Assembly: GCA_965203905.1 (NCBI GenBank)
Contig: CBDBDQ010000005.1
Span: 2,208,001-2,272,000 of the forward strand
Source: Spirochaetia bacterium
GTDB lineage: Bacteria; Spirochaetota; Spirochaetia; SZUA-6; Bin103
Reading direction: 5' to 3'
DNA: 64,000 nt
Part shown: in pieces, positions 1-21,632 of the stretch
Position numbering within the stretch: the stretch's first letter is position 1
Layout: each line of letters starts with the position of its first letter
Program-made: the position numbers and the translations under genes
The notes under the pieces: generated by a model
The model's database searches: none
What the model saw: only the letters and a program-made list of their open reading frames with translations
What the model was told of the DNA's origin: nothing

Positions 1-1
1 C

Positions 2-2214: not shown

Positions 2215-2314
2215 TCATCACCCCCTCAAGCCACCGACCAACTCCACGCGGAGGCCGCCTGACCGCTACCACACTACGCGAATGCACCCTGGGATAGCTG
2301 GGATAGGATGTCGC

Positions 2315-2344
2315 TTGCGTATGGCCAACGGATGGGTGTAGGTT
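2315..2344 (+). promoter_or_regulatory. sigma70-like promoter for NYN leader (TTGCGT-N18-TAGGTT)
   Basis: -35 at 2315-2320 and -10 at 2339-2344, giving a predicted start near 2351. A CTGGGATAG x2 tandem lies just upstream at 2289-2306. Confidence 0.5.
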
Positions 2345-2350
2345 AAGGTC

Positions 2351-2414
2351 AATTACCCGCCGGCAGCATGCTGTCGGCTCAAGGGCTGCTCCCCGGAGCG
2401 GCCCTTGCTTTTTT
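2351..2414 (+). ncRNA. putative structured leader / small RNA upstream of NYN gene
   Basis: Hairpin GCCGGCAG-catg-CTGTCGGC (2359-2378), then the terminator hairpin 2380-2407 and T6. RNA status is inferred. Confidence 0.5.
2380..2414 (+). terminator. intrinsic terminator located 12 nt upstream of the NYN ATG
   Basis: 12-bp stem CAAGGGCTGCTC-cccg-GAGCGGCCCTTG (one G-U pair) followed by CTTTTTT. Confidence 0.75.
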
Positions 2415-2426
2415 CCGGGGGCGGAA

Positions 2427-3200
2427 ATGAGAACCAGGGTCTATGTCGACGGGTTCAACCTGTACTACGGAGCGCTGAAGGGAACGCCCTTCAGGTGGCT
2501 CGATCCGGTCCGGTTGACCTCCCTCCTCCTGCCCCGTGAGTGCGTTGTCGACCGGCTTCGGTACTTTACCGCGCGGGTCTCTGGCAAGGTGGACCCCCGG
2601 GCGCCCGCGCGCCAGCGCATCTACATGAAGGCGCTCGCGACATTGCCCGAAGTCGAGATCCACTACGGCCGTTTCCTCGCCAAGACGGCCTGGCGTCCGC
2701 TCGCCAACCTGCCGGTGGCGGGCAGGCGGATTGACACGCCTGAGGCCGTCACGCTGCCGGAGGGCAACCATCGCGTGGTCGGCGAACGCCCCCGGACCCT
2801 TCCGGTCGGCGCCTATCCGGACCGACGTCGGCGCTGCGAAGCCGTCCCGCGCGCAGCCCGCATTCCGGTTCCCGACGCCCTGATCGCTGAGTTCCATACG
2901 ATGGAGGAGAAGGGTTCGGACGTGAATCTCGCCGCCCATCTGCTGAACGATGCCTGGAAGAATCTCTTCGAGGCGGCAGTGGTGATCTCGAACGACACGG
3001 ACCTGGTGGTGCCGATCCGCATGGTCACCGCAGAACGCAACCGTCCGGTCTTCGTCGTGTGTCCGGGTCGGTGGCAGATGGCGCCTCAGTTGCGGAGTGC
3101 GGCAAGCCATGTCCGGCATATCCACCGCGCGGCATTGAGGGCGGCGCAGTTCCCGAACACCTTGCCGGGCACCGGGATCTCGAAACCGGACGGTTGGTGA
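2427..3200 (+). CDS. NYN domain (LabA/DUF88, PIN-fold) putative RNase
   Basis: VYVDGFNLYYG, RYFTA, EEKGSDVNLA and ISNDTDL; all the acidic PIN/NYN residues are present. There is a long insert between YGRF and EEKGSD. Confidence 0.92.
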   Translation: MRTRVYVDGFNLYYGALKGTPFRWLDPVRLTSLLLPRECVVDRLRYFTARVSGKVDPRAPARQRIYMKALATLPEVEIHYGRFLAKTAWRPLANLPVAGRRIDTPEAVTLPEGNHRVVGERPRTLPVGAYPDRRRRCEAVPRAARIPVPDALIAEFHTMEEKGSDVNLAAHLLNDAWKNLFEAAVVISNDTDLVVPIRMVTAERNRPVFVVCPGRWQMAPQLRSAASHVRHIHRAALRAAQFPNTLPGTGISKPDGW

Positions 3201-3270
3201 CTGGCTTATTTCATGCGATTGCGTGGGCGTCCTGAAGTGAATTGGCGGAGGTTGCGGGCAGGGTAAGGAC

Positions 3271-3726
3271 ATGGCCGAAGGCATCCATTGGAAGTCCATA
3301 TCACGTTTCGAGTCGCATGACTTCGTTGCCAAGTGGTTTCACAAGGCACATGGGAGAAACGCGAGTGCGTCAAAGGTCGCGCAGATAAACGCCTGCTTCG
3401 CCCACGTGCGGGAGTCCTTCCGGAACGCAGAACGCTCGGAAATGAGCGTCAGACCGTTGCTCCTCTACTATGGGGTGCTGTCCTGCTGCCGCGGCGTAAT
3501 TCTGGCGAACAACCCAGACAAGAAGGAGGAGTCGCTCAAACCGCGGCACGGGCTCGAAGCGGTCGACTGGCAAAGCACGCTCAGCGGCGGGATCAAAAGC
3601 GTTCTGGAACTGGAGATCCGGGCAACCGACGGGACGTTCAGGGAACTGGTGGATGTCTGCTGGCACCTGAAGGCTGCGCGCAGTCCGCCTCCGCGGGCAT
3701 GTATGGCCGCCAGGGTCTCGCCCTGA
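3271..3726 (+). pseudogene. YaaC-like protein, C-terminally truncated
   Basis: PLLLYYG and ..HGL motifs are typical of the YaaC family. The ORF is only 151 aa and degenerates after ..VDVCWHLK. Confidence 0.6.
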
Positions 3727-3744
3727 AGTCGGCGTACACAGTCT

Positions 3745-3810
3745 CCCTGTGCCACAGGGTATGTGGCTTTCGGACTTGATGCAACGCGAAAGCTCTCCTG
3801 ACCAGGAGAG
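3745..3810. terminator. pair of hairpins between convergent genes
   Basis: CCCTGT-gcc-ACAGGG (3745-3759) and CTCTCCT-gacc-AGGAGAG (3793-3810); no U-tract. Confidence 0.3.
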
Positions 3811-3831
3811 GGGCGGTGTCAGGTCAGCGCG

Positions 3832-4827
3832 TCACCGTTGCTGCAGGGCGACGGTGCGCTGGCTGCGGGCGGCCTCCTGCGCGGCCTCCATCACCCGCAA
3901 CGTGAGGACGGCGTCACGGGCGTCGAGCAGGGGAGTGGCGCCGTCCAGGAGGCAGTCGTGGAAGTGCTCGAGCGCCGGGGTGAACGCGCGCACGCCGTTG
4001 TGCAGTTCGACGCGCGCGGTGGCGGCGGGCGTGGTGAGGGTGTAGGCGCTCTCCTCGTAGGGGTGGGTCGGCTGCTCGATGAGCAGCGAGCCGCCGCTGC
4101 CGATGAGCTGCGCTCCCGGAGAGGTCAGGCCGTCGAAGCCGCCGTACAGGGTCGCCACCACGCCGCCGGGGAACGTCAGCAGCAGCCCCAGGTGGCGGTC
4201 CACGCCATGTTCGGGATCGAGGTGCCAGGTGGCGCTGACGTGAGTCGGCTCGCTGCCGGCCGCCCAGCGCGCCACGGTGATCAGGTAGCAGCCCACGTCC
4301 ATCAGCACGCCGCCGGCCAGCTCCGGTTGCCAGCGGATGTTGTCGCCGCGTGGAAGGTTGGAGCTCATGCGCATGTGCACGTGGCGCAGGTCGCCGATCG
4401 CCCCGCCGTCCAGCAGGCCGCGCAGGCGCCGGGTCTGGGGGTGGTAGCGGAACACCATCGCTTCCCACAGCAGCACGCCGTGGTCGCGGGCGGCGTCCAC
4501 CATGCGCTGCGCCGCCGCCGCGGTGGTGGCCAGCGGCTTCTCGCAGAAGACGTGCTTGCCGCACTCAGCCGCGCGCAGCGCCCACTCCTCGTGCATGGTG
4601 TTGGGCAGCGGCAGGTACACGGCGTCCACCAGGTCGCTGGCGAGCAGGGCGCCGTAGCTGTCGAACACCTCGGGGATGCCGAGGTCGCCGGCAAACGCCG
4701 CGGTACGGCCGGCGTCGCGCCCGGCCACCGCCACGAGCTCGCCGCGCCGGGTGGCGCGCAACGCCGGGATGAACACGTAGCGCCCGATCTGGGCGGTGCT
4801 GACAATGCCCCATCGAATCCTGGTCAT
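3832..4827 (-). CDS. Gfo/Idh/MocA family oxidoreductase
   Basis: IRWGIVSTAQIG, HVFCEKPLA and GGVLMDVGCY; AGGAG upstream of the ATG at 4827. Confidence 0.92.
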   Translation of the reverse strand: MTRIRWGIVSTAQIGRYVFIPALRATRRGELVAVAGRDAGRTAAFAGDLGIPEVFDSYGALLASDLVDAVYLPLPNTMHEEWALRAAECGKHVFCEKPLATTAAAAQRMVDAARDHGVLLWEAMVFRYHPQTRRLRGLLDGGAIGDLRHVHMRMSSNLPRGDNIRWQPELAGGVLMDVGCYLITVARWAAGSEPTHVSATWHLDPEHGVDRHLGLLLTFPGGVVATLYGGFDGLTSPGAQLIGSGGSLLIEQPTHPYEESAYTLTTPAATARVELHNGVRAFTPALEHFHDCLLDGATPLLDARDAVLTLRVMEAAQEAARSQRTVALQQR

Positions 4828-4886
4828 GATGTCGGTTCCACTCCTCGTGCTGGCCACGCGTCTCGCGCTACAATAATCCCCACGCC

Positions 4887-5705
4887 ATGAGAATCGTACG
4901 CTACGCCAAGGGTGAGACGGTCGGCTACGGCTGTCAACGTGAGGATGGAACCATCGTCGCCATCAACGGCGACCCGCTTGCCGGCATGCCCGGAGGCACG
5001 CCCTACTCGGTGACGCGCCGGGTGATCAGTGACGCGCAGGTGCTGGCCCCGGTGGTGCCGGGCAGCGTGCTGTGCATCGGCCTCAACTACCGCCGCCACG
5101 CCGCCGAGTCCGGGGTGGCGGTGCCCGACCACCCGGTGCTGTTCATGAAGATGCCGTCGTCGGTGCAGCGCCCGGGCGGCCCCATCGTGCTGCCGCGCTC
5201 CCTGCGCAGCGACGAGGTGGACTACGAGTGCGAGCTGGCGGTGGTGATCGGACGTCGCTGCCGCAACGTTTCCCGCGAGCAGGCCCTCGACTACGTGCTC
5301 GGCTACACCTGCGGCAACGACGTCAGCGCCCGCGACTGGCAGATGCAGTGGGGCGGCGGGCAATGGTGCCGCGGCAAGACCTTCGACACCTTCTGCCCGC
5401 TGGGACCGGCGCTGGTGACCGCGGACGAGATCCCCGACCCCAACGCCCTGCGCATCAAGACCGTGGTCAACGGCGAGACCCTGCAGGACTGGAGCACCAA
5501 CGACATGATCTTCGACGTGCCCGAGCTGATCGCCTTCCTCAGCGGCAGCAGCACCCTGGAGCCGGGCACCGTGATCATGACCGGCACGCCGCACGGGGTG
5601 GGCGCCGCGCGCACGCCGCCGCGCTTCCTGCAGCCGGGCGACACGGTCACGGTGGAGATCGAGAAGATCGGCGCCCTCACCAACCCGGTGGTAGCGGAGG
5701 AGTGA
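4887..5705 (+). CDS. fumarylacetoacetate hydrolase family protein
   Basis: CIGLNY, DYECEL, NDVSARDWQ, GKTFDTFCPLGP and TGTPHGVG. Confidence 0.95.
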   Translation: MRIVRYAKGETVGYGCQREDGTIVAINGDPLAGMPGGTPYSVTRRVISDAQVLAPVVPGSVLCIGLNYRRHAAESGVAVPDHPVLFMKMPSSVQRPGGPIVLPRSLRSDEVDYECELAVVIGRRCRNVSREQALDYVLGYTCGNDVSARDWQMQWGGGQWCRGKTFDTFCPLGPALVTADEIPDPNALRIKTVVNGETLQDWSTNDMIFDVPELIAFLSGSSTLEPGTVIMTGTPHGVGAARTPPRFLQPGDTVTVEIEKIGALTNPVVAEE

Positions 5706-6622
5706 GCCAGATCCGCTACTCGACGATCGCGAAGTCGGGGCCGACGAACCCGCGCAACGATACCGCGAGCGTGGTCGAGCTGAACAACGGCGAGCTGCTG
5801 GTGCTGTGGCACAAGTACGAGGCGACGGCGGACGCGGGACACGACCTCATCTACTTCTTGCGAGCGGTTTCGAGCGCCTCATGAAGCCTGCTGCCGGATC
5901 CACGGCAAGACCTCCGCCGACCAGGGGCTGACCTGGGGTGGCGAGCGCATGATCGTCGACATCGCGCCGGGCGACCTGAACGTCCAGGCGCCGGCGCTCG
6001 CGCGACTGCCCACGGGCGAGTTGCTCATGATCTGCCTGCGCGCCCACTCGGAGAGCAGCACGACCATGTGCGCGTACCTGTCGGAGGATGAAGGGCGCAC
6101 CTTCACGCCGATCGGCACCGTGTGGGAGCGCTCGCCGGGCCAGTGGCTGCAGGGTGGCGCGGTCGCCATCGTCGTGCTCTCGTGCGGCCGGCTGCTGGTG
6201 CCCTGCCACGGCGGCACGGGCGGCCAGTTCAGCCAGCACAACGGCGGCTGGTGCTGGCTCAGCGAGGACCACGGCAGGAGCTGGGTGCGCTCGCGGGGCA
6301 CCGTGGACCTGCCGCTGCGCGGCGCCATGGAGCCGTCCCTGGCGGAGGTCGCCAGCGGCCGGATCTTCATGTCGCTCCGAACCCAGTTGGGGGCGGTGTT
6401 CCTGGCGAGCTCCGAGGACGGCGGCGACACCTGGTCCCTGCCGCAACGACCGGCCTGAAGGCCGCCGAGTCGGGCACCAGCGACGGCAACGCGGTGGTGA
6501 CCTACCTGCAGGTCGAGGACCGGGACTGGAAACGCTTCATCAGAACCGGCATCGATCTCCAGGCCGCCATCGTTCCGGTGTCGAGGATTCTGCAGGCCGG
6601 GTCGGCCCCGGCCGAAGCCTGA
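5702..6622 (+). pseudogene. sialidase/BNR-repeat glycosidase, disrupted
   Basis: The GTG start overlaps the upstream stop. Asp-boxes SADQGLTW, SEDEGRTF, SEDHGRSW and SEDGGDTW are present. It is split over three frames by a roughly 37-nt insert at 5849-5885 and a frameshift near 6445, with an apparent internal deletion before the C-terminus. Confidence 0.8.
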
Positions 6623-6649
6623 GAGGAGAAACGGAGTTCGCGAGCCCCC

Positions 6650-7606
6650 TCAAGGAGCGCGGCCGGCCGCTGCTTCGAGCAGCCGCACCAGGGCCGGCTT
6701 GCGGCGCCGGCGAGCGTAATCGAGCGCGGTCTCGCCGCCGGGCTGGGTGGGGCTCCGGCGGGTGCGCAAGGTGGCGTCGGGGCGGTAGCCGAGGATCAGC
6801 CTGACCCAGGCCACGGTGCCCGCGACCACCGCCTCGTGCAGCGCCGTCTTGCCGGTGCTGTCCTGCCTGCTCGGATCGGCGCCGTGGTCCAGCAGCAGCC
6901 GCGCCATCTCCGGGTAGCGGTTGGCGATGGCGCGGTGCCGCGCGGTCCCGCCGAGGTGCCCCGCCGGACAGTCGGGGGAGGCGCCGCGTTCCAGCAGCAG
7001 CGCGGCCGCGGCCAGGGCGTTGCCCTCCACGGCGTCGGCCAGGGGTGGGTGGCCGTGCCGGTTCACGGCCGCGAGGTCCGCACCCCGCGCCAGCAGCAGG
7101 CGCAGCGCATCCGGCTGGTTGCCGCGCGCGGCGGCGTGCAACGGGGTGGCGCCGCGCCGGTCGCGTTCGCCCACCGCGGAGGCGCGCGCATCGAGCATGC
7201 GCCGGAGTTGTTCCAGCGCACCCAGTCCCGCAGCGTCCACCGCGCGCATGCGGCAGCCGCGGCGCACCAGCAGCTCCGCGATCGCCAGCGCCCCCGCCGC
7301 CGGCGCCGCGTCCAGCAGCGTGGAGCCGCCGTGATTCACCTGCAGCGGGTCGGCGCCGAGCTCCAGCAGCAGTGCCACGATCGCGGGGCGCCGCGCCGCG
7401 ATCGCCTCCCGGATCGGCGTGCCGCCGTGCGCGTTGCGGGCATCGACCAGGGCGGGATGTCGCGCCAGCAGCGCCGCTACCTGCCCCGGCGTGCCGCGGC
7501 GTACGGCCTGCAGGAGCTGGCCGCGGGCCTCGCGCCGGCTCACCCGGGCAGGCGGGTCATTGGGAGATGTGTGGGCATCCGATGCCGTAACCGGGGAGCG
7601 TGCCAC
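6650..7606 (-). CDS. ankyrin repeat protein
   Basis: Repeated G.TPLH.AA / G.TALH.AV / LL..GAD units. The start is uncertain. Confidence 0.9.
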   Translation of the reverse strand: MARSPVTASDAHTSPNDPPARVSRREARGQLLQAVRRGTPGQVAALLARHPALVDARNAHGGTPIREAIAARRPAIVALLLELGADPLQVNHGGSTLLDAAPAAGALAIAELLVRRGCRMRAVDAAGLGALEQLRRMLDARASAVGERDRRGATPLHAAARGNQPDALRLLLARGADLAAVNRHGHPPLADAVEGNALAAAALLLERGASPDCPAGHLGGTARHRAIANRYPEMARLLLDHGADPSRQDSTGKTALHEAVVAGTVAWVRLILGYRPDATLRTRRSPTQPGGETALDYARRRRKPALVRLLEAAAGRAP

Positions 7607-7610
7607 CGGT

Positions 7611-9008
7611 TCAGGTGTTGAACATCTCCTCCACGCGGGAGATCGACTCGGTCTTGGCCACCATGGTGAGCTTGTCGCCGTCGTGCAGGACGAAGTCGCC
7701 CCGTGGCACCACGTGGGAACCGTTGCGCGTCACCGCCACCACCAGCGAGTTGTCCGGCATCCTGATGTCGCGCAGCTCGCGCCCGACGAAGCCGCGGGAG
7801 CCGTCCAGCGTCGACTCGATCACCTCGGCCATGCCGCCGAAGATGCTGTGCACGCTCTTCACGCGGCCGCGGCGGATGAACTTGAGGATGCTGTTCACCA
7901 CGCTGTACTTGGGACTGATGATGACGTCGGCGCCGAGGCGCGAGGCCACCGTGAGGTAGTTGAACTTGTTGACCAGGGCGATCGAGCGCTTGATGCCCAG
8001 GGTCTTGGCATAGATCGCCACCAGGATATTGAGCTCCGGGTTGTTGGTGGTGGTGATGATCAGGTCGTACCCGGCCAGCGCCTCCTCCTCGAAGAACCCC
8101 TCCTCGGAGACGTCGCTGTTGATCACCACCGCATCGGGAAACTGCTCGGCCAGCCGTTTGCAGTTCTCGTAGTCGCTGTCCACGATCTTGAGCTTCTTGT
8201 GGTCGCGCCGCAGGTAGTCGAGCAGGCGGTGCGCGCGCCGCCCGTTGGGCTTCTCCACCAGCGCTTCGGCAACGAAGCTCCCGACCCGGCCGCCGCCCAC
8301 CAGCAGCACGCTCCTGATGGTCACCCGCGGCCGTCCAGCGATCACGAACACCTCGTCCAGCGTGTTCTCGGCGGCTATCAGGTATAGCTCGTCGCCGGTC
8401 TCCACGCGCGCGTCCCCGCGCGGCACGAAGAACTCCTCGCCGCGCGAGATCCCCGCCACCATGAACTCGGTGTCCAGCGCCTGCTTGATGGCGGCGATGC
8501 TCTGGCGTGCGAACAGGGTGCGGTCGTCCACCAGGAAGTTGCGCATCTGCAGGTCGGTGTTCTCGAAGGTCATGACGTCGCTGGTGGCGCCCTGCTCCAC
8601 CGACTTGATGATGGCCCGCGCCGCCTCGATCTCGGGATTGACGAAGTAGTCCACCTCCAGGAAGGAGTGCTCCGGCAGGTGGGAGTTGGCGTACTCCGGG
8701 TTGCGCACCCGCGCGATCTTGCACGGCACCCCGAACTCGCTCGCCACCAGGCCGCAGGAGACGATGTTGAGCTCGTCGCTGTCGGTGACGCTGATGAAGA
8801 AGTCGGCGCCGTCGATGCCCGCCTCGCGCAGCGCCGGCAGGCGGTTGCCGGAGTCGTTGATCACCATGCAGTCGAGGTGGTTCACGGCGTACTTGGCCGT
8901 CTCCGGATCACGCTCGATGAGGACCACGTCCTTGTTGTCGGCCACCAGGTGGCGGGCCACCTGGAAGCCGGTGGTGCCGGCGCCGGCGATGACTACCTTC
9001 TCAGCCAT
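7611..9008 (-). CDS. trkA: Trk system potassium uptake protein TrkA
   Basis: Two RCK_N domains (IAGAGTTG, VGGGRVG) with RCK_C domains, KIARVRN, 465 aa. Confidence 0.93.
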   Translation of the reverse strand: MAEKVVIAGAGTTGFQVARHLVADNKDVVLIERDPETAKYAVNHLDCMVINDSGNRLPALREAGIDGADFFISVTDSDELNIVSCGLVASEFGVPCKIARVRNPEYANSHLPEHSFLEVDYFVNPEIEAARAIIKSVEQGATSDVMTFENTDLQMRNFLVDDRTLFARQSIAAIKQALDTEFMVAGISRGEEFFVPRGDARVETGDELYLIAAENTLDEVFVIAGRPRVTIRSVLLVGGGRVGSFVAEALVEKPNGRRAHRLLDYLRRDHKKLKIVDSDYENCKRLAEQFPDAVVINSDVSEEGFFEEEALAGYDLIITTTNNPELNILVAIYAKTLGIKRSIALVNKFNYLTVASRLGADVIISPKYSVVNSILKFIRRGRVKSVHSIFGGMAEVIESTLDGSRGFVGRELRDIRMPDNSLVVAVTRNGSHVVPRGDFVLHDGDKLTMVAKTESISRVEEMFNT

Positions 9009-9094
9009 CGGCGTTCAATATGGACGCTGCGCAGGATGCTGGCAACTCACCCGCCACTGGCATTTTTCACCGCTCCGTGATGGAATCGGCAGCC

Positions 9095-10462
9095 ATGAAG
9101 ATCACGTTCATCGGGGCCGGCTCCACCGTCTTCGTGAAGAACATCATCGGCGACTGCATGCTGGCCGAGCCGCTGCGCGACGCCACGGTCGCGCTGTACG
9201 ACATCGATGCCCGGCGGCTGCAGGAGTCGAAGGCGATGCTGGACACGCTGAACGGCAATATCAACGCAGCGCGCGCCACCATCGAGACCTATTTGGGTAC
9301 GGAGGCGCGTCAGGAAGCACTGCGTGGGGCCGACTTCGTGGTCAACGCAATCCAGGTGGGCGGCTACGAGCCGAGCACGGTGATCGACTTCGAGGTGCCC
9401 AAGAAGTACGGGCTGCGCCAGACCATCGCCGATACCCTGGGCATCGGCGGCATCTTCCGCGCCTTGCGCACCATTCCGGTGATGCTCGACTTCGCCCGCG
9501 ACATGGAGGAGGTGGCCCCGGACGCCTGGCTGCTGAACTACACCAACCCGATGGCGATGGTGATGGGCGCGGTGCTGCACGCGACCGGGGTGCGTGCGGT
9601 GGGGCTGTGCCACTCGGTGCAGGCGTGCGTGCCGAAGCTGCTGGGAAGGCTGGGCATGGAGCACGATCCGGCCGCCACCAAGTGGCAGATCGCCGGCATC
9701 AATCACCAGGCGTGGCTGCTGGAGCTGAAGGCGGCCGGCGCCGACCTGTACCCGGAGGTGAAGCGGCGTGCCGCCGAGATGAACTGCGCGGCGCGGGACG
9801 GCCAGGACAAGCACGACGACATGATCCGCTTCGAAATGATGCGCCACTTCGGCTACTACGTCACCGAGTCATCGGAGCACAGCGCCGAGTATTTCCCCTA
9901 CTGGATCAAGAGCACCCACCCGGAGCTGATCGCCGAGTTCAACATCCCGCTCGACGAGTACATCCGCCGCTGCATCCGGCAGCTCGAGCGCTGGCGCACG
10001 CAGAGCGCCACCATGGTCGGCAACCCCGACCTGAGCCACCAGCGCTCGGTGGAGTACGGCTCGCGCATCATGGAGGCGATCGTCACCGACCGCCCCTACC
10101 GCATCCACGGCAACATCCTCAACGACGGCTTCATCGGCAACCTGCCGGCGGGGACGTGCGTGGAGGTGCCGTCGCTGGTGGACCGCAACGGGGTGCAGGG
10201 CTGTGTGGTGGGCGACCTGCCGGAGCCGTGCGCGGCGCTCAACCGCACCAACGTCAACGTGCAGCTGCTCACCGTGGAGGCGGCGCTGGAACGGCGCCGC
10301 GACCGCATCTACCAGGCGGCCATGCTCGATCCGCACACCGCCAGCGAGCTGTCGCTGGACCAGATCGTGAGCCTGTGCGATGAGCTGATCGAAGCGCACG
10401 GCGATCTGCTGCCGGCCTACCGCAGCGATCCGCTGCCGGCCTACCGCAGCAACGGTGCGTAA
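9095..10462 (+). CDS. melA: alpha-galactosidase, GH4
   Basis: KITFIGAGS, QTIADTLGIGG, LNYTNPM, GLCHS, AGINHQ and TESSEH. Confidence 0.93.
   Translation: MKITFIGAGSTVFVKNIIGDCMLAEPLRDATVALYDIDARRLQESKAMLDTLNGNINAARATIETYLGTEARQEALRGADFVVNAIQVGGYEPSTVIDFEVPKKYGLRQTIADTLGIGGIFRALRTIPVMLDFARDMEEVAPDAWLLNYTNPMAMVMGAVLHATGVRAVGLCHSVQACVPKLLGRLGMEHDPAATKWQIAGINHQAWLLELKAAGADLYPEVKRRAAEMNCAARDGQDKHDDMIRFEMMRHFGYYVTESSEHSAEYFPYWIKSTHPELIAEFNIPLDEYIRRCIRQLERWRTQSATMVGNPDLSHQRSVEYGSRIMEAIVTDRPYRIHGNILNDGFIGNLPAGTCVEVPSLVDRNGVQGCVVGDLPEPCAALNRTNVNVQLLTVEAALERRRDRIYQAAMLDPHTASELSLDQIVSLCDELIEAHGDLLPAYRSDPLPAYRSNGA
10401..10450 (+). repeat. 24-bp tandem duplication at the melA 3' end
   Basis: GCGATCTGCTGCCGGCCTACCGCA / GCGATCCGCTGCCGGCCTACCGCA, encoding DLLPAYRS-DPLPAYRS. 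Confidence 0.85.
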
Positions 10463-10494
10463 CCGGCGGCGGGCCTTGCCGGTGGGGCGCTGAC

Positions 10495-12000: not shown

Positions 12001-12020
12001 CCCTCAGACGTACATGAAGT

Positions 12021-12221: not shown

Positions 12222-12538
12222 AGCTGAAGTATGCCGTGGTGTATGAACAGACTCCGAACAACTACGGTGCCTATGTCCCCGATCTGCCCGGCTGCATCAG
12301 CACCGGTGCCAGCCGGCGTGAGATTCAGGACAACATCCGCGAGGCTATCGAATTTCACATTGAGGGGTTGCTGGAGAGTGGCGACTCGGTACCGAATCCT
12401 CGGATGTCGATTGGGGACGCCATGACATTCCACAGCGAGGTGCTGAGCGAACAGGGCGGCTCCGCTCCGCAACTGGAGACCACGGTAGCGATGGTTGAGA
12501 TTGAGGTAACGCCGTCACGGGCAGCCGGAGTACGTTGA
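12218..12538 (+). CDS. hicB: HicB antitoxin
   Basis: YAVVYEQ..NYGAYVPDLPGC.STG and IREAIEFHIEGL. Confidence 0.9.
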   Translation: MKLKYAVVYEQTPNNYGAYVPDLPGCISTGASRREIQDNIREAIEFHIEGLLESGDSVPNPRMSIGDAMTFHSEVLSEQGGSAPQLETTVAMVEIEVTPSRAAGVR

Positions 12539-12566
12539 CTCCCTCGCTGGCACAAGTTCGACGCCA

Positions 12567-13286: not shown

Positions 13287-13295
13287 CCGTCGCGG

Positions 13296-14333
13296 TCAGC
13301 CGGCTACGTCGATTACCACCTTGAGGGCCTGGCGCTCTCCCTTGGCCAGGGCAGTCATCATCGCCGGCACCTCGTCCAGGGTGCAGCGGCCCTCGATGAA
13401 GCCGGACAGCTCGCGTTGCAGGCCGCCCAGCATAGCCACCGCGTCGCCGAAGGCGCGCCGGTCGAAGCCGTAGGTCCCGACCAGGGTCCATTCGTAGCTG
13501 ATCATGTCCTGCACTGACAGCGGCACCTCCTTGGCGAGGTTGCCGATCATCAGCACGGTGCCGCCCTCCGCCACCATGCCCACGGCGCTGACGAAGGATG
13601 CGCGGCTACCCACGGCGTCGACCACCACATCGGGCGGCTCGCCGAGTGCCGCGGTTACCGCCGCGCTGGTATCTTCTGCCGCGGCGTCGGCCGCGATCGG
13701 AACCGCCGTCGCCCCCAACCCGGCAGCGCGCTCCGCCTTGGCGGCGATGGTGTCCAGCGAAGCGATCCGCTGCGCGCCGCGGGCGCGCGCCACCAGCACG
13801 CCCGCCATGCCGATGGTGCCGGCGCCGAGAATTGCCACCCGGCGCGGCGTCACGTTGCGCGCCTCCAGCCGGTGCCAGCCGTGCAGCACCACGCCCAGCG
13901 GTTCCGCCAGCAGGCCGATCTCGCTCGGCACGCCGTCGGCCAGCGGGATCAGGTTGGCCGTGGGGACCGCGACGTACTCCGCCATCGCCCCGCGCTTGCC
14001 CAGGTTCACCCCTATGAGCTGCTTGTTGAGGAACGACGGATCGCCCTCCTCAGGGCTCGGCGCGTGCTCCGCGATGATGTTGTAGAGCGCCACCCGCGTG
14101 CCCACGGGCGGGGCGTCGGCGCCGGGACCGAGCTCTGCGACGGTGCCGCTTACCTCATGGCCCATCACCATGCCGGGGGCGCGGCGGCCGCTCTCCCCGG
14201 TGAAACCGTGCACGTCACTGCCGCAGATGCCCACCGTATCCACCCGCAGCAACGCTTCTCCGCCGGCCGGCTCCGGCGTCGGCAGGTCGACCACCTCCAT
14301 GTCCCACGGCCCGTTGTAGACAACAGCTTTCAT
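13296..14333 (-). CDS. Zn-dependent alcohol dehydrogenase (MDR family)
   Basis: MKAVVY, GICGSD, GHE and ILGAGTIG; it lacks the structural-Zn Cys cluster. Confidence 0.9.
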   Translation of the reverse strand: MKAVVYNGPWDMEVVDLPTPEPAGGEALLRVDTVGICGSDVHGFTGESGRRAPGMVMGHEVSGTVAELGPGADAPPVGTRVALYNIIAEHAPSPEEGDPSFLNKQLIGVNLGKRGAMAEYVAVPTANLIPLADGVPSEIGLLAEPLGVVLHGWHRLEARNVTPRRVAILGAGTIGMAGVLVARARGAQRIASLDTIAAKAERAAGLGATAVPIAADAAAEDTSAAVTAALGEPPDVVVDAVGSRASFVSAVGMVAEGGTVLMIGNLAKEVPLSVQDMISYEWTLVGTYGFDRRAFGDAVAMLGGLQRELSGFIEGRCTLDEVPAMMTALAKGERQALKVVIDVAG

Positions 14334-14561
14334 CGGGGCCGAGCATAGCACGGGAGCGGTGGACTGATACGCGCGTTCCATAGGCGCATGGTCCTGCGAG
14401 CCTACTACCGCTTCCGCTCTGGTCGAACCTGACGCTGTCCCGGTGCACAGCCTGCCCCTTGCGGTCCCGGCAAAGCCTCGTATCATAAGCAGGGTGAGGA
14501 CCACTCCCAGCGAGTTCGCATCGGCGGACATCCGTTACGAACGGGGCAACCGGGACTTGCT

Positions 14562-15607
14562 ACGACACTTCTCAGCAGTTTCAGCGCTGTTCGCTACAAG
14601 GGCATAGACGGCCTGCCATTGCCCCGTCTCTCTCAGGCCAATCTCATCACTGGGGTCAATGGCGTGGGCAAGACGGCGTTGATCGAAGCTATCTGGCTGT
14701 TCATGGGGCGATACAACCCTTCCCTCTTGTGGAACGCTAACGTCCAACGCGCACGCAACCCGGTACGCAACCCAGTCGACAGGCTTTCTGGCCCGGTGCT
14801 GGAGCTCTTCGGAACGGAAAGCGGGCTGGACCATAGCGTACGCTGGACGTTCGAGCGCGTGTCGGAGTTCGTACAGCCGCTGACGGTGGGTGAAGACGCC
14901 GACCGGATAATGCAGCTTCCCGTTGTCGGCCGCATCGACACTTTCTTGGACGGCGCCCTCGCAAAGGGTAGCATTGGCGGTATGCAGCCGACGCCTGGGG
15001 GCGTGGTAATGCACGAGAATCCGTTGCCGAACGGTGCTCGACCGAACTGTGTCATCGAGGGTACGCGGTATCAACTTGAAACGCCCGGTGAATTCCTGCG
15101 GCGCTACTCCGATCTGGTCAGAGAGAAGCGCAAGCAAGAGCTCAAGGATGCGATGAGCATGATTCTTCCGGCGGTGCGTGATTTCGAGATTCTGACCGAT
15201 GAGAAGGGCGATTCGTACCTTTCAGGAGTAACGGCAGACGGAAAGCAGCTGCCGCTCCATGATCTCGGCGGAGGAGTTGTCAGACTCTGCCAGCTGCTAC
15301 TGAGCTGCTTTGCATCTCGTGGGGGTATCCTGCTTGCGGATGAGATGGAAAACGGCATGCACCACTCAGCGCTCCCAGAAGTGTGGAATCGCGCCCGTCA
15401 GTGGATGCGAGAGTGGAGCGTCCAGCTCGTGGCGACGACTCACAGCGCGGAATGGATCGAAGCCGCGACCAATGCGTTTGAGGACGCTCCCGATGATCTG
15501 TCCGTGCATAGATTGTTTACCAACCGTGAAACGCACAACGTAGAGGCGGTTACTTTACCGGCGATACGCTTGAGGGAGCGCGCGATCTCAACCTGGAGAT
15601 CCGGTAG
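14562..15607 (+). pseudogene. AAA_15/AAA_21-type ABC ATPase, frameshifted
   Basis: RYKGI, Walker A GVNGVGKT, DLGGG, LADEMENGMH and TTHS. One T is missing at 15554-15556; restoring it gives ..VTFTGDTLEGARDLNLEIR* ending at 15607. There is no in-frame ATG (ACG at 14562). Confidence 0.8.
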
Positions 15608-16253
15608 TGCGGAAGATTCGCAAGCAACGGCTATTGTTGGTTGAGGGCAGGGATGAGGTAAATCTGTTTTGTGCGATGATCCGTGACTGTTTTGACGACG
15701 ATCCCGGCATACAAGTGATCGACGCAGGATGGAAGGACAAGTTCAGCCGAAACCTGAGAGCCATTAAGGCAGCAGCGACGGCGGGACCCGCCCTGCAGTC
15801 GATTGGCGTCGTCCGTGATGCTGACGACGACGCTAGCGCCGCCTTCGACAGCGTGTGCGATGGCATCCGGAGCGCGAACTATGAACCGCCAGCGAACCAT
15901 ATGGTGAGTTTTCCAACGCCCTGCCAGCGATTGGTGTGTTCATCGTACCGGACGGCACCAGTACGGGCGCCGTCGAGACCCTCTGTCGCCGGTCGCGTCA
16001 GGGGAATGTCACGGCAGTATGCGTTGACGACTATCTCAAGTGTCTGGAAGAGAGTCACGCTACGAGTTCAAAGAACACCGACAAGAGCTTTGCTCATGCT
16101 TATCTCGCCGCCATGGAGGATCCTATGGCGCGGGTAGGCGAAGGCGCTTTGCAGGGTGTATGGAATTTCACATCTTCGGCGTTCACACCGCTCGCGGGTT
16201 TTCTCCACCAGCTCGCCCTGCGTGCGGGCGGAATACCTCAAGCTCCGTCATAA
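15607..16253 (+). pseudogene. DUF3226-like TOPRIM-fold protein, frameshifted
   Basis: LLVEGRDE and VRDADD. An AT duplication at 15899-15902 shifts the frame, which continues GEFSNALPAIGVFIVPDG..GAVETLC..DKSFAHAYLA. Confidence 0.75.
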
Positions 16254-16449
16254 CGACGCGCCGCTGGCGGACGCGGGCGGTCGCCTGTGTCACTGCGGCG
16301 TTGGAGCGTTCAAGTGCCTCCAAGTGCGTTGACGCCGCATCATCGCGTAGGGACCGTCGCAAACGCACCGGTGGGAACGTACGAAATGTGTGTTGGCTCG
16401 CCCGCTTGGCGCGAGTGCCCCGACAGCGTAGCCTTGGCGGCGGGAAACC

Positions 16450-17361
16450 ATGCCCGAATTGCCATCGGTAACCGTATACGTTGAGCATCTGCGCCGCCGC
16501 ACCGTGGGCCGCACGTTGCAGCGCGTGCGCATCGCGAGTCCCTTCGTGCTGCGTTCCCACGATCCACCGATCAAAGCCGCGGACGGCAAGCAGGTACACG
16601 CCGTCGACCGTCTCGGCAAGCGCATCGTGTTCACGCTGAGCGACGAGCTGTTCCTGGTGCTGCACCTGATGATCGCCGGCCGCCTGCGCTGGCACGACGG
16701 GAGCGCGGCCGCCAAGATTCCGCGCAAGGTGGGGCTGGCCGGCTTCCAGTTCGACACCGGCACCCTGATCCTTACCGAGGCGGGCAGCAAGCGGCGTGCT
16801 TCGCTGCACCTGGTGGCGGGTGCCGCGGCGCTGGCCGAGCACGACCGCGGCGGGCTGGAGATCCAGGACGCCGACGCCGTTGCATTCCGAGAAGCGCTGC
16901 TGCGGGAGAACCACACCCTGAAGCGCGCGCTGGCCGATCCGCGCCTGTTCTCCGGCGTGGGCAACGCCTTCTCCGACGAGATCCTGCACCGCGCCGGGCT
17001 GTCCCCCCTGCAGCTCACCCAGCGCATGACAGAACCGCAGATTGACAAGCTGCGCCACGCCTGCGTTGACGTCCTCGGCGAGTGGGTGGAACTCCTGCGC
17101 GCCGAGAGCGGGGAGGCTTTTCCGAAGAAGGTGACCGCATTCCACCCGCGGATGGCGGTGCACGGCAAGTACGGGCAACCCTGTCCGGTGTGCGCCACGC
17201 CCGTGCAGCGCATCGTCTACGCCAACAACGAGAGCAACTACTGCCCGCGCTGCCAGACCGGCGGCAAGCTGCTCGCCGACCGCTCCCTCTCCCGGCTGCT
17301 CAAATCCGACTGGCCGCGCAGCGTCGAGGAACTGGAAGAACTCCGTAGACCCCGCCCCTGA
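16450..17361 (+). CDS. Fpg/Nei family DNA glycosylase
   Basis: N-terminal MPELP, RLGK, HLMIAG, H2TH SGVGNAFSDEIL, and zinc finger CPVC..CPRCQ. Confidence 0.93.
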   Translation: MPELPSVTVYVEHLRRRTVGRTLQRVRIASPFVLRSHDPPIKAADGKQVHAVDRLGKRIVFTLSDELFLVLHLMIAGRLRWHDGSAAAKIPRKVGLAGFQFDTGTLILTEAGSKRRASLHLVAGAAALAEHDRGGLEIQDADAVAFREALLRENHTLKRALADPRLFSGVGNAFSDEILHRAGLSPLQLTQRMTEPQIDKLRHACVDVLGEWVELLRAESGEAFPKKVTAFHPRMAVHGKYGQPCPVCATPVQRIVYANNESNYCPRCQTGGKLLADRSLSRLLKSDWPRSVEELEELRRPRP

Positions 17362-17378
17362 GGGAGGAGGCGCCCTGC

Positions 17379-17837
17379 TCAACCAAAGAGCCGTCGCAAC
17401 CAGTCTCCAAGCTGGACCGCAGCGGGCGCCCCGGCATTCAGGTCCCTGGCCCCGATTGCGGACCCCATCTTCCGTGGCTCCTCTCGTGTGGCCAACCACG
17501 AATGAACCTTGGCGCGAAGTGTCTTTCCTGTGGCGAACTTGCGGTCAGCAACCGGTATCCCGTCGATATAGGTCTCGGATCGTGGCCACACCGGATCGTT
17601 GGTCGGAATCATGCCCGCGATGAACTCCTCCAGTTCGCCGGACGATACGTTGTTGGGCATCAACCAGATCCCGATTCGGGGCCTGTTGTCGATGATGGTC
17701 CCGGATGGGACAGTTGTCTTGCCGACGCCGTTCTTTCCGGCGAGCAGAGTCACGCGTCCGAGATGAGGGATTTTCAGTTGGTCAATCCCTCGGAATCCAT
17801 CGATGGTCAAGTTCGGAAGGTGAAGGGGGTCAGGCAT
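17379..17837 (-). pseudogene. in-frame deletion fusion: ATPase N-terminus + DUF3226 C-terminus
   Basis: The first ~43 aa (LTIDGFRGI..LLAGKNGVGKTTV, Walker A) join directly to RIGIWLMPNN..GELEEFI..KAKV-like RAKVHSWLA. Confidence 0.8.
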
Positions 17838-17914
17838 ACTACACCGTCGGCCGAGAGGGTCGCTGCTGAAGGTCTATTGTAGCACCTGCACGGCTGACGT
17901 GTCGCAAGCTACGG

Positions 17915-18847
17915 TTAGCGCGGTGAGCGCCGCGACGTGATGGCGTTCAGCACGGCCTTCGACACGGTGCAGACCATCGTGTAGGCGGGGTCGAACATGT
18001 TGCCGAGCTGGTAGCCGACGGCCTGGCCGAGGACGATGTGGGCCAGGTGGCGGTCGAGGCCGTAGTCCTCCACCAGCCAGCGCAGCATCTCCGTGGTGGC
18101 GTGCTGCACGCACTGGTCGAGGGGACGGGCGTTGCCCAGGGTGGCGATGAACTGGGGCGCTTGCGCCCGTGGCCAGCCGATGGAGCGGCCCTTGTGCAAC
18201 TCGACGCGGAACACCACGTCGGCGGAGATCTCGATGCCGGTGCCGACGATCTCGCCGTCGCCCTGGACCGCGTGCACGTCGCCGAGGGCGAACAGGGCGC
18301 CCGGCTCGAACACTGGGAACAGGGCGGTGACCCCGGCGCGGAAGCCGTTCCAGTCCATGTTGCCGCCGTGGCGCTCGGAGGTGGCGGTGGAGATCGCCTG
18401 GTGCCGCGCCGGCGCGACGCCGAAGCAGCCGATCATCGGCGCCAGCGGCAGGCGCCAGTGCTCCAGGCCGGGCAGGTCCAGGGGCGAGGCGACGCCGGCA
18501 GCGACGTCCACCGCCCATTCGATGCGTTCCGGCAGGTCGCCGGGCAGGGTGGGGTGGCCGGGGTCGAGCACGTTGGACGCCACCCAGGACTTGGTGTAGC
18601 CGCGGTCGCGGTTGGGGCGGATCAACTCCAGGTGCACCGCCAGCGTGTCTCCCGGCTCGGCACCGGCCACTCGGAACGGACCGGTCTGTGGGTTGCCGGA
18701 CGGGGTCACGGCGTGCCCGTCGGCATCGCAGCCGCCGGCATCGACGGTGGTGGTGGCCACCCGGTCGCCGGGTTCGATGGTAAGCACCGGATCATGCGGA
18801 CCGAGGGTGGTGTGATAGTGGGTGGGAAAGAACTGATGATCGGCCAA
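17915..18847 (-). CDS. acetamidase/formamidase family protein
   Basis: NPQTGP..V.GAEPGD.L, HGGNMD and GDVHAVQGDGE; TTG start with AGGAG. Confidence 0.92.
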   Translation of the reverse strand: MADHQFFPTHYHTTLGPHDPVLTIEPGDRVATTTVDAGGCDADGHAVTPSGNPQTGPFRVAGAEPGDTLAVHLELIRPNRDRGYTKSWVASNVLDPGHPTLPGDLPERIEWAVDVAAGVASPLDLPGLEHWRLPLAPMIGCFGVAPARHQAISTATSERHGGNMDWNGFRAGVTALFPVFEPGALFALGDVHAVQGDGEIVGTGIEISADVVFRVELHKGRSIGWPRAQAPQFIATLGNARPLDQCVQHATTEMLRWLVEDYGLDRHLAHIVLGQAVGYQLGNMFDPAYTMVCTVSKAVLNAITSRRSPR

Positions 18848-19111
18848 CGGCGGACTCCTGCAGTTGCGCGAACGGGGTTGCCCGCGCGGATTGACCACAG
18901 GATACCCTCACGCGGCGCGCTTGGCAGGTACCATTGACAGGCAGCGGGGACCCCGATGTCGACACCGGCGCGCTGGGTGGAGGACCACCTGCTCGGGGCT
19001 GGAACTCGCCGCAGCCGTGGAGCGGGAGTTGCGCGGGCGCGGCATGTACGACCTAACGGTGCGCCGCTCCAGCCCTACGGGCGGCCACCGCTACGCGGGT
19101 TGCCTGATCGG

Positions 19112-20119
19112 CTACCCGGCCGGTGGTTCGTGGACCAGTGCTGCGCGGGTAATCGGATGCTCGCCGAGCACCGGCACGGTCGCCTTTGCTTGCACCCCTC
19201 CGACCAACTCCAGAGAGTCGCCGAATTCGCATGACCTGATGCGCCGCTCGATCAGGTTGACGAACGTGGGGTTCAACTCAACTCCGACCCATTTTCTCCC
19301 CAGATCCTCAGCCGCCAGCAACGTTGTTCCGGAACCGGCATACGGATCCAGCACCACGTCATGCGGACGGCTGGTGATAGCGACGCATCGCCGTGCCAGC
19401 GTCATCGGCATCATCGCGGGATGATCATCCATGGTGCCGTCGCGCCGTAGCGGCTCCGTCGGAATGTCCCAGACCGTCCTCAGGCGGCGCCCCTTGGGTC
19501 CACGTACCACGTCGATGTCATAGTAGTAGTCCTGACTCTTTGACAGGAGGAATATGGTCTCGTGGGCTTTCGTCGGGCGATCGCGAACCGATTCCGGATG
19601 GGCATTCGGCTTGTGCCAGATGACCTCCGAGCGTAGCCACCAGCCCCGGTCCTGTAGGGCGAAGGCGAGCCGCCAGGGGATTCCGATCAGATCCTTGGGT
19701 TTGAGACCTTCCGGCGTCACTGGGCGCACCGTCATGGCGCGCGCCCGATTCTTGCGGTCCGGGGCGCGATATCGGCGGTTTCCCGACGTATAGGCGTCAC
19801 CCACGTTCAGCCACACCGTGCCATCGTCCGTGAGAACGCGGCGGAGCTTGTCGAACGTCTCCACGATGCTTGCCAGGTAGTCACTCAGGGGATCGTCCCG
19901 ACCGATCTGCCGATCGACCTCGTAGTTTCGGAGTGACCAGTATGGCGGCGAGGTCACCACTGTCTGAACGCTGCGCTCGGGAAGCAGGTCCATGGCATCA
20001 TTCGCGCATCCACACAGCAGCACCGACCGCTCCAGGCTGATATTCGCGGCTGGACCCTTCGTATCGAGCCGAATATAGTAAGGTTGTAACGACTCGCCCA
20101 CGGGAATTCGTTCACTCAT
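19112..20119 (-). CDS. site-specific DNA methyltransferase (N4-C/N6-A, beta class), orphan
   Basis: Motif IV TSPPY precedes motif I DPYAGSGTT, with IWHKPN and HPAMMP. The ~40-aa C-terminal tail looks like read-through. Confidence 0.92.
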   Translation of the reverse strand: MSERIPVGESLQPYYIRLDTKGPAANISLERSVLLCGCANDAMDLLPERSVQTVVTSPPYWSLRNYEVDRQIGRDDPLSDYLASIVETFDKLRRVLTDDGTVWLNVGDAYTSGNRRYRAPDRKNRARAMTVRPVTPEGLKPKDLIGIPWRLAFALQDRGWWLRSEVIWHKPNAHPESVRDRPTKAHETIFLLSKSQDYYYDIDVVRGPKGRRLRTVWDIPTEPLRRDGTMDDHPAMMPMTLARRCVAITSRPHDVVLDPYAGSGTTLLAAEDLGRKWVGVELNPTFVNLIERRIRSCEFGDSLELVGGVQAKATVPVLGEHPITRAALVHEPPAG

Positions 20120-20185
20120 CTTAACGCATCAGCAGTTCTTGGTGCGGGCTGCTTCAGAGACGCGGTAGAACCAGCACCCATGGGT

Positions 20186-20215
20186 TCAGCAGGAGCACGT
20201 TCTTGTTGGCCTGCA
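20186..20215. repeat. 30-bp direct repeat, copy 1
   Basis: TCAGCAGGAGCACGTTCTTGTTGGCCTGCA; 29/30 identical to 21603-21632. Confidence 0.9.
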
Positions 20216-20524
20216 GGTTGGTACGCCGGCTGCCTTATCGTTGGATTCACGTGACGTGACGCCCGGCTACTGGCTCACCTCATGGGTTTAAGGTGACGCG
20301 GCCGGGCAGTGACAGGTCGCCGGAGACAACGTCGTGCACTCCGGTGACGCACCCCAACGGGGCCTCAGCCTGTCGTTGATCTGCAGCTCCGCCGTCACGG
20401 CGTCGAACGACACGTTCTCGGTCTCGCTGACCGGGATCAGTGAGAGGCAGCGGTTGCGTCGGCACAGAGCGCGCCCGTCAGGTCCCAGGCTTGGCGTCAG
20501 CGTCCGGCCGAAAGGTTGCAAGCC

Positions 20525-21328
20525 TTACCCGTTATCCATGTGTTCCGACACGATCGTCCAGAAGGAGCCTCGGAGCTGATGTCTGGCTTCCTGATTGTCG
20601 CGAAGAGAACTCCCCAGGGCTTGCTCGCCGGTATGGATCAGTTCCGAGTCGATCAGAGACGGAATCCGGGGACGACCCTCAAGTAAAGTTCGAATTTCGT
20701 CTGAGTTCGCACTCTCGAGCCACTGTGCGGCGAATGTCTTTCCCACATCGGACAAGTCAGCATCGCCACCAATCTGTGGATATGGAGCTTGCGGGGTTGT
20801 GAAATACGCGCAAATATCCTCTCGATTCAAAACCACTACGTCGTCGGATTCGTATACCAGCTCTGGAGACTGGTTGCGTGATCCCGGCACTGGAGAAACT
20901 CCAATAAGGGTCACCCGCACTCCTTGATCCTGAGCCTCTTTAACCCCTTCGCGCAAGTCCTCATCGCCTGCTAGCAGGAAGGCTTCAGCTATCGCCCGAT
21001 CACGGGCAAGCGTCATGAGGTCCCGATAGATTAATGCATCTACTCCTTTCTGTTGTCCACGCGCATTGATCCGACCCAAGCGAAGCTTCACGTTGGGTAG
21101 ACAAGCAATGGCCTGTTGGCTCACGGTTCTGAGACCGAATCGCGCGCCGTCGTACCAGTAGGTGCGGAGAAATCTGAGCCCACATCGTTCTCGCAGTACA
21201 TTCGTCAGCATCACATTCAGATCTCGTTCGTTCACCTCGAATCGACGACGGGATGCCGTTCCGCAGCAGAGCTTTCCGCCTTCCGCGTACAAGTAGCCAG
21301 CATCCAAGAACAGCGCGAACTGGTCCAT
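20525..21328 (-). CDS. NYN domain (LabA/DUF88, PIN-fold) putative RNase with C-terminal extension
   Basis: FLDAGYL, RTYWYD, QQKGVD and LAGDEDL; ATG at 21328 with GGAGGT at 21333-21338. Confidence 0.92.
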   Translation of the reverse strand: MDQFALFLDAGYLYAEGGKLCCGTASRRRFEVNERDLNVMLTNVLRERCGLRFLRTYWYDGARFGLRTVSQQAIACLPNVKLRLGRINARGQQKGVDALIYRDLMTLARDRAIAEAFLLAGDEDLREGVKEAQDQGVRVTLIGVSPVPGSRNQSPELVYESDDVVVLNREDICAYFTTPQAPYPQIGGDADLSDVGKTFAAQWLESANSDEIRTLLEGRPRIPSLIDSELIHTGEQALGSSLRDNQEARHQLRGSFWTIVSEHMDNG

Positions 21329-21338
21329 CAAGACCTCC

Positions 21339-21363
21339 AAAAAAAGGGCCTCCGAAGAGGCCC
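21339..21363 (-). terminator. intrinsic terminator abutting the NYN RBS
   Basis: The minus strand reads GGGCCTC-TTCG-GAGGCCC-TTTTTTT (cUUCGg tetraloop), immediately followed by GGAGGT. Confidence 0.85.
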
Positions 21364-21416
21364 CGGCTCCCCATCGAGGAGCTATCAAAACAAAGATGAT
21401 CGCCACAATGGCGATC
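21339..21416 (-). ncRNA. putative three-hairpin leader / small RNA upstream of the second NYN gene
   Basis: GATCGCCA-ttg-TGGCGATC (21398-21416), a U-rich linker, GCTCCTC-gat-GGGGAGC (21366-21382), then the terminator. RNA status is inferred. Confidence 0.55.
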
Positions 21417-21421
21417 GATAG

Positions 21422-21450
21422 AATGTACCGTGGTGGCTACCGAGCGTCAA
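21422..21450 (-). promoter_or_regulatory. sigma70 promoter TTGACG-N17-TACATT
   Basis: -35 at 21450-21445 and -10 at 21427-21422. The predicted start near 21416 is the first base of hairpin 1. Confidence 0.75.
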
Positions 21451-21602: not shown

Positions 21603-21632
21603 TCAGCAGGAGCACGTTCTCGTTGGCCTGCA
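21603..21632. repeat. 30-bp direct repeat, copy 2
   Basis: TCAGCAGGAGCACGTTCTCGTTGGCCTGCA. Confidence 0.9.

Follow-up and report, generated by a model that had tools for sequence, protein, structure and literature searches.

Near the start of a 64,000-nucleotide (nt) stretch of a Spirochaetia bacterium genome (GenBank assembly GCA_965203905.1, contig CBDBDQ010000005.1, positions 2,208,001 to 2,272,000), which is referred to here as the window, a gene for an NYN-fold ribonuclease, NYN1, is preceded by a structured RNA motif of 63 nt. This motif belongs to a previously uncatalogued RNA family that is absent from Rfam 15, and we have next to no doubt that the family is real. The RNA is conserved, its stems covary, it is strictly linked to the NYN gene, and it is found in variable orientation, in tandem arrays, and on mobile DNA. 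We are largely confident that the RNA is a dedicated partner of the nuclease that works as a separate molecule, while we give even chances to its being an antitoxin. The overall reading to which we lean, with slightly better than even confidence, is that NYN1 and its RNA form a two-part module, with the RNA working as a free molecule and most likely being a type III-like antitoxin.

The NYN1 locus is composed of the following features:
2315..2344, plus strand: promoter-like site of the NYN1 RNA, TTGCGT-18 nt-TAGGTT, read from the sequence
2353..2415, plus strand: class A NYN-associated RNA motif, with a short 5' tail, two hairpins, and T6
2359-2378, plus strand: hairpin 1 of the motif, with the loop GCGUGC
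2380-2407, plus strand: terminator hairpin of the motif, with a 12-pair stem, found by pattern scan
2409-2414, plus strand: T6 of the motif, ending 12 nt before the ATG
2427..3200, plus strand: NYN1, 257 amino acids (aa), NYN fold, PADLOC HEC-09 family

The initial annotation of the window had described hairpins, a GC stem, and a T-run before the ATG of NYN1 and also of a second NYN gene, NYN2, which is treated further below. This description is confirmed for both genes, with the T-runs ending 12 and 10 nt upstream of the respective ATG. The three longest stems listed in positions 1..40000 (12, 8, and 8 pairs) all lie in the two NYN leaders, and both leaders fold better than their shuffled versions (z of -3.06 for NYN1 and -3.95 for NYN2, with 0/200 shuffles being as good). 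According to codon-position GC content and Pfam, the upstream neighbour of NYN1 is a PIN fragment (1810-2214, minus strand) and that of NYN2 is an ABC transporter gene (21719-23584, plus strand). Since both neighbours are divergent, the hairpins belong to the 5' regions of the NYN genes themselves, and terminators of upstream genes are ruled out as an explanation for them.

For the relatives of NYN1, one genome per species was scanned, the best 80 of 520, which come from many phyla, were kept as genome loci, and the 125 nt upstream of each of the 80 genes were compared. Two hairpins followed by a T-run recur upstream of these genes, so that the conserved covarying hairpins with a terminator, which the initial annotation had proposed to look for in NYN1 homologues, are indeed present, and they fall into two classes. 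Class A, which includes the window, has a short ACCC tail, an 8-base-pair (bp) hairpin with an invariant GCGUGC loop, and a terminator hairpin. Class B, which includes a paralogue in the same genome, has a C-rich tail, a 9-bp hairpin that is usually capped by UUCG, a conserved GC linker, and a terminator hairpin. In the class A alignment (n = 39), 97.4% of the cells are paired and 15 of 20 pairs show a compensatory change, with 0/500 shuffles as high and slid controls reaching 31-51%. The class B alignment (n = 36) gives 93.5% paired cells and compensatory changes in 16 of 19 pairs, again with 0/500 shuffles as high and with slid controls at 39-52%. The stems change only by covariation, the loops being fixed. 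One class A pair is a G-U pair in 29 of the 39 sequences, which fits an RNA of this strand and not DNA.

Two covariance models, R1 and R2, were built with nested helices only. The window motif scores 83.7 bits with R1 and 28.1 bits with R2, and the fact that both models match it shows classes A and B to be related. Rfam 15 gives no match at the gathering threshold on the whole window, and on 14 related loci (class B, array, and NYN2-type leaders) the only matches at threshold are RNAI and a tRNA, with all other Rfam families, including abiF, staying below it. The best sub-threshold match is the BjrC68 small RNA (19.1 bits vs 39), which was rejected as a generic two-hairpin likeness.

The ends of the motif resemble those of a transcription unit. 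A promoter match of at least 9/12 lies within 50 nt for 28 of 75 motifs, compared to 0.8% of random positions, and the -10 hexamer of the homologues ends 12-14 nt before alignment column 7. From this fixed distance, transcription is predicted to start at the first bases of the motif, about 2351-2353 in the window. The sigma70-like promoters that had been proposed for both NYN genes of the window hold for NYN2, with nine of 12 matches, whereas the NYN1 site is weak by the E. coli consensus and was not listed by the promoter scan, although strong promoters in the homologues sit in the same place. At the other end, at least 5 T are found within 9 nt after the stem in 54 of the 75 motifs. The distance from stem end to start codon has a median of 18 nt, which leaves no space for a second promoter, and the protein of the leader loci would therefore be made by read-through.

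Following these features, NYN1 and the 63-nt RNA would be a self-contained module that combines a small structured RNA with an NYN-fold ribonuclease. The promoter would fire at the first base of the RNA motif, most transcripts would end at the GC stem and U-run to give a short RNA of about 60-65 nt, and a minority would read through and encode the nuclease. A strong promoter combined with a leaky terminator would keep the RNA in excess over the nuclease, and the free RNA would most likely bind and neutralise the NYN protein. The module would then represent a type III-like toxin-antitoxin or abortive-infection system with a PIN-like toxin.

The RNA and the nuclease gene are found together in nearly all genome loci. 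A model match of at least 37 bits adjoins the NYN gene in 79 of the 80 genome loci, where the 80th locus (L043) is truncated by the contig end, and in the viral contigs a match of at least 40 bits is present at 35 of 59 loci. In the Spirochaetia genome itself and 150 relatives, each of the 12 matches that score 49 bits or more is followed by an NYN gene or what remains of one, with NYN being intact after four of the 12 and frameshifted, truncated, or deleted after the others, while matches under about 32 bits are ordinary terminators. Three of the 12 are in the Spirochaetia genome, each beside an NYN gene or remnant, the third being a class B copy (G000:C5:2943486-2943545, L186) that scores 49.6 bits and is followed by a frameshifted NYN remnant. 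This scarcity bears on the possibility of a DNA-level element, for instance a recombination site or a repetitive extragenic palindromic (REP)-like repeat of a mobile cassette, which would suit the variable contexts of the module and its presence on plasmids and prophages. The three copies of the genome all lie beside NYN genes or remnants, the G-U pairs make the structure strand-specific, and the promoter is fixed at the 5' end and the U-run at the 3' end, leaving such an element scarcely credible.

A conserved protein partner of NYN1 was not found, the largest neighbour cluster covering 6 of 80 loci, which agrees with the earlier claim that NYN1 has no adjacent protein antitoxin. On the protein tree, the RNA class requires 6 changes, compared to a mean of 33.3 after shuffling. 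Relatives of NYN1 are present in 193 plasmid records (many of 3.5-5.7 kilobases [kb]), 2 phage records, and 59 viral contigs.

A helix-turn-helix (HTH) gene is divergent from NYN in three of the four small plasmids examined (L215, L216, and L217 from Serratia, E. coli, and Klebsiella) and also in a Mycobacterium prophage (L223), and a Thiothrix plasmid (L222) encodes a ProQ/FinO-family RNA chaperone at 1298-1813, convergent and directly after NYN. In the genomes G004, G008, and G007 (L196, L200, and L202, respectively), the class A motif or half of it, together with the first NYN codons, is fused to a phenylalanyl-tRNA synthetase alpha-like gene, as if the NYN gene had been lost in one deletion that was then inherited.

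A number of copies of the RNA are not leaders of the NYN gene. The Mycobacterium prophage L223 has a class B motif (59.6 bits) immediately past the NYN stop codon, encoded on the other strand and with its own promoter, and the same convergent sequence is also present in three viral contigs (L249, L251, and L252). A Terriglobales metagenome-assembled genome (MAG; L101) likewise has a convergent motif of 63.8 bits with its own promoter. The RNA is divergent from NYN, again with its own promoter, in two Alphaproteobacteria MAGs (L058 and L095) and a viral contig (L248). Orphan extra copies with promoter and terminator, and no NYN gene after them, are found at L055, L092, L099, and L040, with the orphan copy of L092 showing a compensatory change relative to the neighbouring copy. 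As small RNAs beside toxin genes often work by antisense pairing, the RNA could be a type I-like regulator that pairs with the NYN mRNA. For five trans-encoded RNAs, the duplex energy with the gene start region is no better than with shuffled targets, showing no excess complementarity (z of -1.7 to +1.6), and the convergent copies overlap just the terminator, which makes an antisense function very unlikely.

The second arrangement beyond the single leader is the tandem array. On a 4.6-kb E. coli plasmid (L214), the tail and hairpin 1 are repeated 3.5 times with a period of 33 nt, followed by a strong terminator and NYN, and plasmid L224 has an array of 4.8 copies of hairpin 1, then the terminator and the NYN gene. 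The array is present on 17 small mobilizable enterobacterial plasmids, its last unit with the terminator scores 47.9 bits with R1, and the L214 plasmid protein clusters with class A relatives that have a nearly identical hairpin. A viral contig (L236) has two complete motifs in tandem. No tandem arrays of the motif are found in the 80 genome loci, among the matches listed, nor in L217. Tandem repeats with a terminator are described as the defining layout of ToxI-type antitoxins (Blower et al. 2012, PMC3401426). The initial annotation had named the absence of such repeats as a caveat, and the window copy is indeed a single unit, whereas its relatives L214, L224, and L236 do have the repeat feature, and the plasmid arrays of 3.5-4.8 units with their terminator remove the caveat.

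These copies and arrays are the material by which a purely cis-acting leader can be judged, that is, a transcription attenuator or autoregulatory target that limits the nuclease's own mRNA and leaves no role for a free RNA. As expected for such a leader, the RNA precedes the gene in sense orientation in 76 of the 80 genome loci, its terminator lying a median of 18 nt before the start, and ribonuclease autoregulation through the own mRNA is known from the rne, rnc, and pnp leaders and from the Regnase-1 stem-loop. Those elements are likewise hairpins in a ribonuclease mRNA, but they act in cis only, whereas the NYN1 RNA also occurs as a separate gene and in arrays. An effect in cis on the NYN transcript is impossible for the convergent, divergent, and orphan copies, which have promoters of their own. 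Attenuation needs no tandem arrays of hairpin 1, and near-consensus promoters before an attenuated gene point to a need for the RNA as such. The non-leader copies and the arrays are thus hard to square with a purely cis-acting attenuator, which we consider possible but rather improbable, and the separate RNA genes and the array-terminator layout fit a type III-like system better than pure leader autoregulation.

The orientation, the orphan copies, and the arrays speak also against a small riboswitch with a terminator-embedded sensor, similar to the HMP-PP riboswitch. The short hairpin beside a terminator and the invariant loop and junction bases would be compatible with it, but the gene under control encodes this nuclease in every case and is in no case a metabolic one, and we give this explanation very little credence.

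NYN1 matches the PADLOC HEC-09 profile (PDLC04163) with 134.1 bits (E value of 1.2e-39) and the NYN family (Pfam ID PF01936) with 25.6 bits, while NYN2 reaches 34.5 bits with the latter (cut-off of 24.2). The predicted NYN1 structure has a mean predicted local distance difference test (pLDDT) score of 88.2, with the best PDB match being a LabA-like protein (PDB ID 2qip, E value of 3.8e-6), and it also resembles the MARF1 NYN domains (PDB IDs 5yaa and 6fdl) with E values of 5e-4 to 8e-4. The acidic PIN residues had been reported as retained, and in 71 sequences D8, E161, and D165 are invariant and D190 and D192 are present in at least 90%.

Payne et al. (bioRxiv 10.1101/2024.01.29.577857) presented HEC-09 as an NYN candidate that consists of one gene and is found inside Hma defence systems. 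NYN1 matches the profile of this single-gene candidate with its MARF1-like NYN fold, but no Hma system surrounds the window copy. The main text of the HEC-09 paper has no mention of non-coding, ncRNA (non-coding RNA), terminator, or leader (bioRxiv 10.1101/2024.01.29.577857), so that the RNA partner appears to be undescribed there, and literature searches, which covered listings and abstracts, found no link between NYN genes and an RNA partner.

A different role for a dedicated RNA would be that of a positive partner in an RNA-protein nuclease, being a structural subunit, activator, or specificity factor and not an inhibitor. The linkage, co-inheritance, and separate-gene evidence fit this role equally, and no toxicity is reported for HEC-09 in the main text of its description. 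The RNA could in particular be an obligatory subunit of a new small RNA-protein nuclease, with the conserved hairpin licensing or aiming the NYN protein and the arrays supplying several subunits; such a ribonucleoprotein, spanning phyla and carried on mobile elements, would have been overlooked because no annotation covered its RNA. Against a positive role, the RNA has no variable guide-like segment, its stems varying by covariation alone with fixed loops, the repeats-terminator-nuclease layout is known from RNA antitoxins as outlined in PMC3401426, and NYN open reading frames (ORFs) are often decayed while the RNA scores high (4/12 intact in the relatives). We regard a positive partner as unlikely, and the obligatory subunit equally so.

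The RNA antitoxin reading draws on the type III toxin-antitoxin systems ToxIN, CptIN, and TenpIN, whose common layout is outlined as a promoter, an ncRNA, a terminator, and an endoribonuclease-type gene (Blower et al. 2012, PMC3401426). The NYN1 module has the same order of promoter, RNA, and terminator directly upstream of a toxin-like gene. As in these systems (PMC3401426), it has no protein antitoxin, its RNA forms tandem repeats in some members, and it is located on plasmids and prophages and linked to defence. In contrast to them, the protein has an NYN (PIN-like) fold outside the ToxN, CptN, and TenpN families, Pfam giving just NYN at an E value of at most 0.1, the RNA of most members is one unit of plain hairpins, as modelled with nested helices, and the RNA gene can be convergent or divergent. 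Because of the differing toxin family and the lack of repeats in the window copy, we file the module as one that would work like a type III system and not as a member. A structured RNA upstream of a toxic RNA-targeting protein is also the layout of AbiF with its RCd22 RNA and abiF motifs, as presented by Saunier et al. (PMC12373285 / bioRxiv 10.1101/2025.04.15.648962), but the Abi_2, Cas13-related fold and the RNA of that system (PMC12373285) are unrelated to those of the NYN1 module.

Several observations weigh against a free antitoxin RNA. The arrangements other than a leader are few, coming from about five independent lineages among about 150 loci, and given the predominance of sense leaders, action in cis may accompany action in trans. 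Most loci have one unit of plain hairpins instead of a repeat array of pseudoknots, and 21 of the 75 motifs have a poor U-run. Neither model matches 11 of the 59 viral loci or the mycobacterial plasmid L219, and matches of 33-39 bits are found in relatives with no NYN gene downstream (L191, L192, and L193). The tree result shows long co-inheritance and not co-evolution. Furthermore, HEC-09 did not protect against any tested phage, and toxicity is noted, in the main text, just for HEC-03 and HEC-04, though the clones had the native promoter region (bioRxiv 10.1101/2024.01.29.577857). For NYN1, the type III-like reading of the initial annotation is thus supported in part: it has gained a conserved covarying RNA, a separate RNA gene in several lineages, and the arrays, while the missing defence of HEC-09 holds the verdict back.

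If the RNA neutralises the nuclease, the module would represent a further RNA-antitoxin family, with a toxin of the PIN-like NYN fold, that would be spread over the Acidobacteriota, Proteobacteria, Nitrospirota, Nitrospinota, Gemmatimonadota, Chloroflexota, Verrucomicrobiota, Bacteroidota, Spirochaetota, and Actinomycetota and would also be present on small plasmids of E. coli, Klebsiella, and Salmonella. The candidate defence gene HEC-09 would gain its missing second component, and a proper HEC-09 test would be one with the protein separated from the RNA. Routine methods would suffice to test the idea on the natural E. coli plasmids of 4.6 kb. Since R1 and R2 detect the RNA family with high specificity, its annotation is possible now.

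The second NYN gene of the window shows a similar design with different sequences and comprises the following features:
21422..21450, minus strand: promoter-like site of NYN2, TTGACG-17 nt-TACATT, 9/12 matches, listed by the promoter scan
21339..21416, minus strand: NYN2 leader, three hairpins and T7
21416-21398, minus strand: leader hairpin 1, followed by a T-rich run, found by pattern scan
21382-21366, minus strand: leader hairpin 2
21364-21345, minus strand: terminator hairpin with an 8-pair stem, found by pattern scan
21345-21339, minus strand: T7 of the leader, ending 10 nt before the ATG
20525..21328, minus strand: NYN2, 267 aa, NYN-domain protein in a low-GC stretch

The NYN2 leader lies outside classes A and B, with no R1 or R2 match at an E value of at most 1 in the searches of its own genome, and the protein has no HEC-09 match in PADLOC and just a weak match to the PADLOC NYN model (11.3 bits). 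The same three leader hairpins are found in the closest relative of NYN2 (L102, 79% identity), a relative with 48% identity (L103) has the same leader architecture with different stems, and L104 and L105 have a leader of two hairpins and a T-run. Two NYN paralogues in the same genome have leaders that are analogous to that of NYN2 but cannot be aligned to it. A search of another 400 genomes of the phylum gave no additional NYN2 relatives at an E value of at most 1e-20, and the relatives at about 40% identity (L106-L181, metagenome contigs) do not have such a leader. The case for the NYN2 leader is weak because just the four relatives L102-L105 carry the design, which are too few for statistics. 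The type III-like reading had been extended to NYN2 as well; the design recurs in a small sample, and that NYN2 follows the same logic as NYN1 with an unrelated RNA is a tentative proposal that we hold with somewhat less than even confidence.

The relatives L106-L181 have an N-terminal extension, and a co-directional gene ends about 45 nt upstream of them, suggesting that they may have a protein partner in place of the RNA. In L103, a tRNA gene (1125-1195) is found about 300 nt upstream of the NYN2-like gene and may be the integration site of an island. The GC content at NYN2 is 0.54-0.57, compared to about 0.68 in the flanks. An N6/N4 DNA methyltransferase gene (19112-20119, minus strand) is on the same strand as NYN2, 400 nt after it, and the stretch 19200-21400 has a GC content of 0.54-0.62 (vs about 0.68). 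This lower-GC stretch with NYN2 and the methyltransferase may be an acquired island.

The 8-Mb (megabase) genome encodes seven NYN genes, six of which show the order of promoter, hairpins, T-run, and start when judged by eye, while the seventh, of the LabA + OST-HTH type, is without this leader layout. Hairpin and T-run sites number 292 in the 8 Mb of the whole genome, with three of them sitting directly before NYN genes.

Among the neighbouring genes in the window, the PIN frame upstream of NYN1 (1810-2214, minus strand) is VapC-like and lacks both a start codon and the beginning of the domain. No VapB-like frame lies upstream of it, and the PIN frame probably represents the remains of a toxin gene. 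The long ORFs 31..2049 and 21524..23530 were rejected as spurious frames by codon-position GC content and Pfam. A YaaC-like protein of 151 aa (3271-3726, plus strand) begins 70 nt past NYN1; it spans just the first 128 of 307 profile positions and is not kept beside the NYN1 homologues. The window starts within a family B DNA polymerase gene (2-1789, plus strand), which is truncated by the window start.

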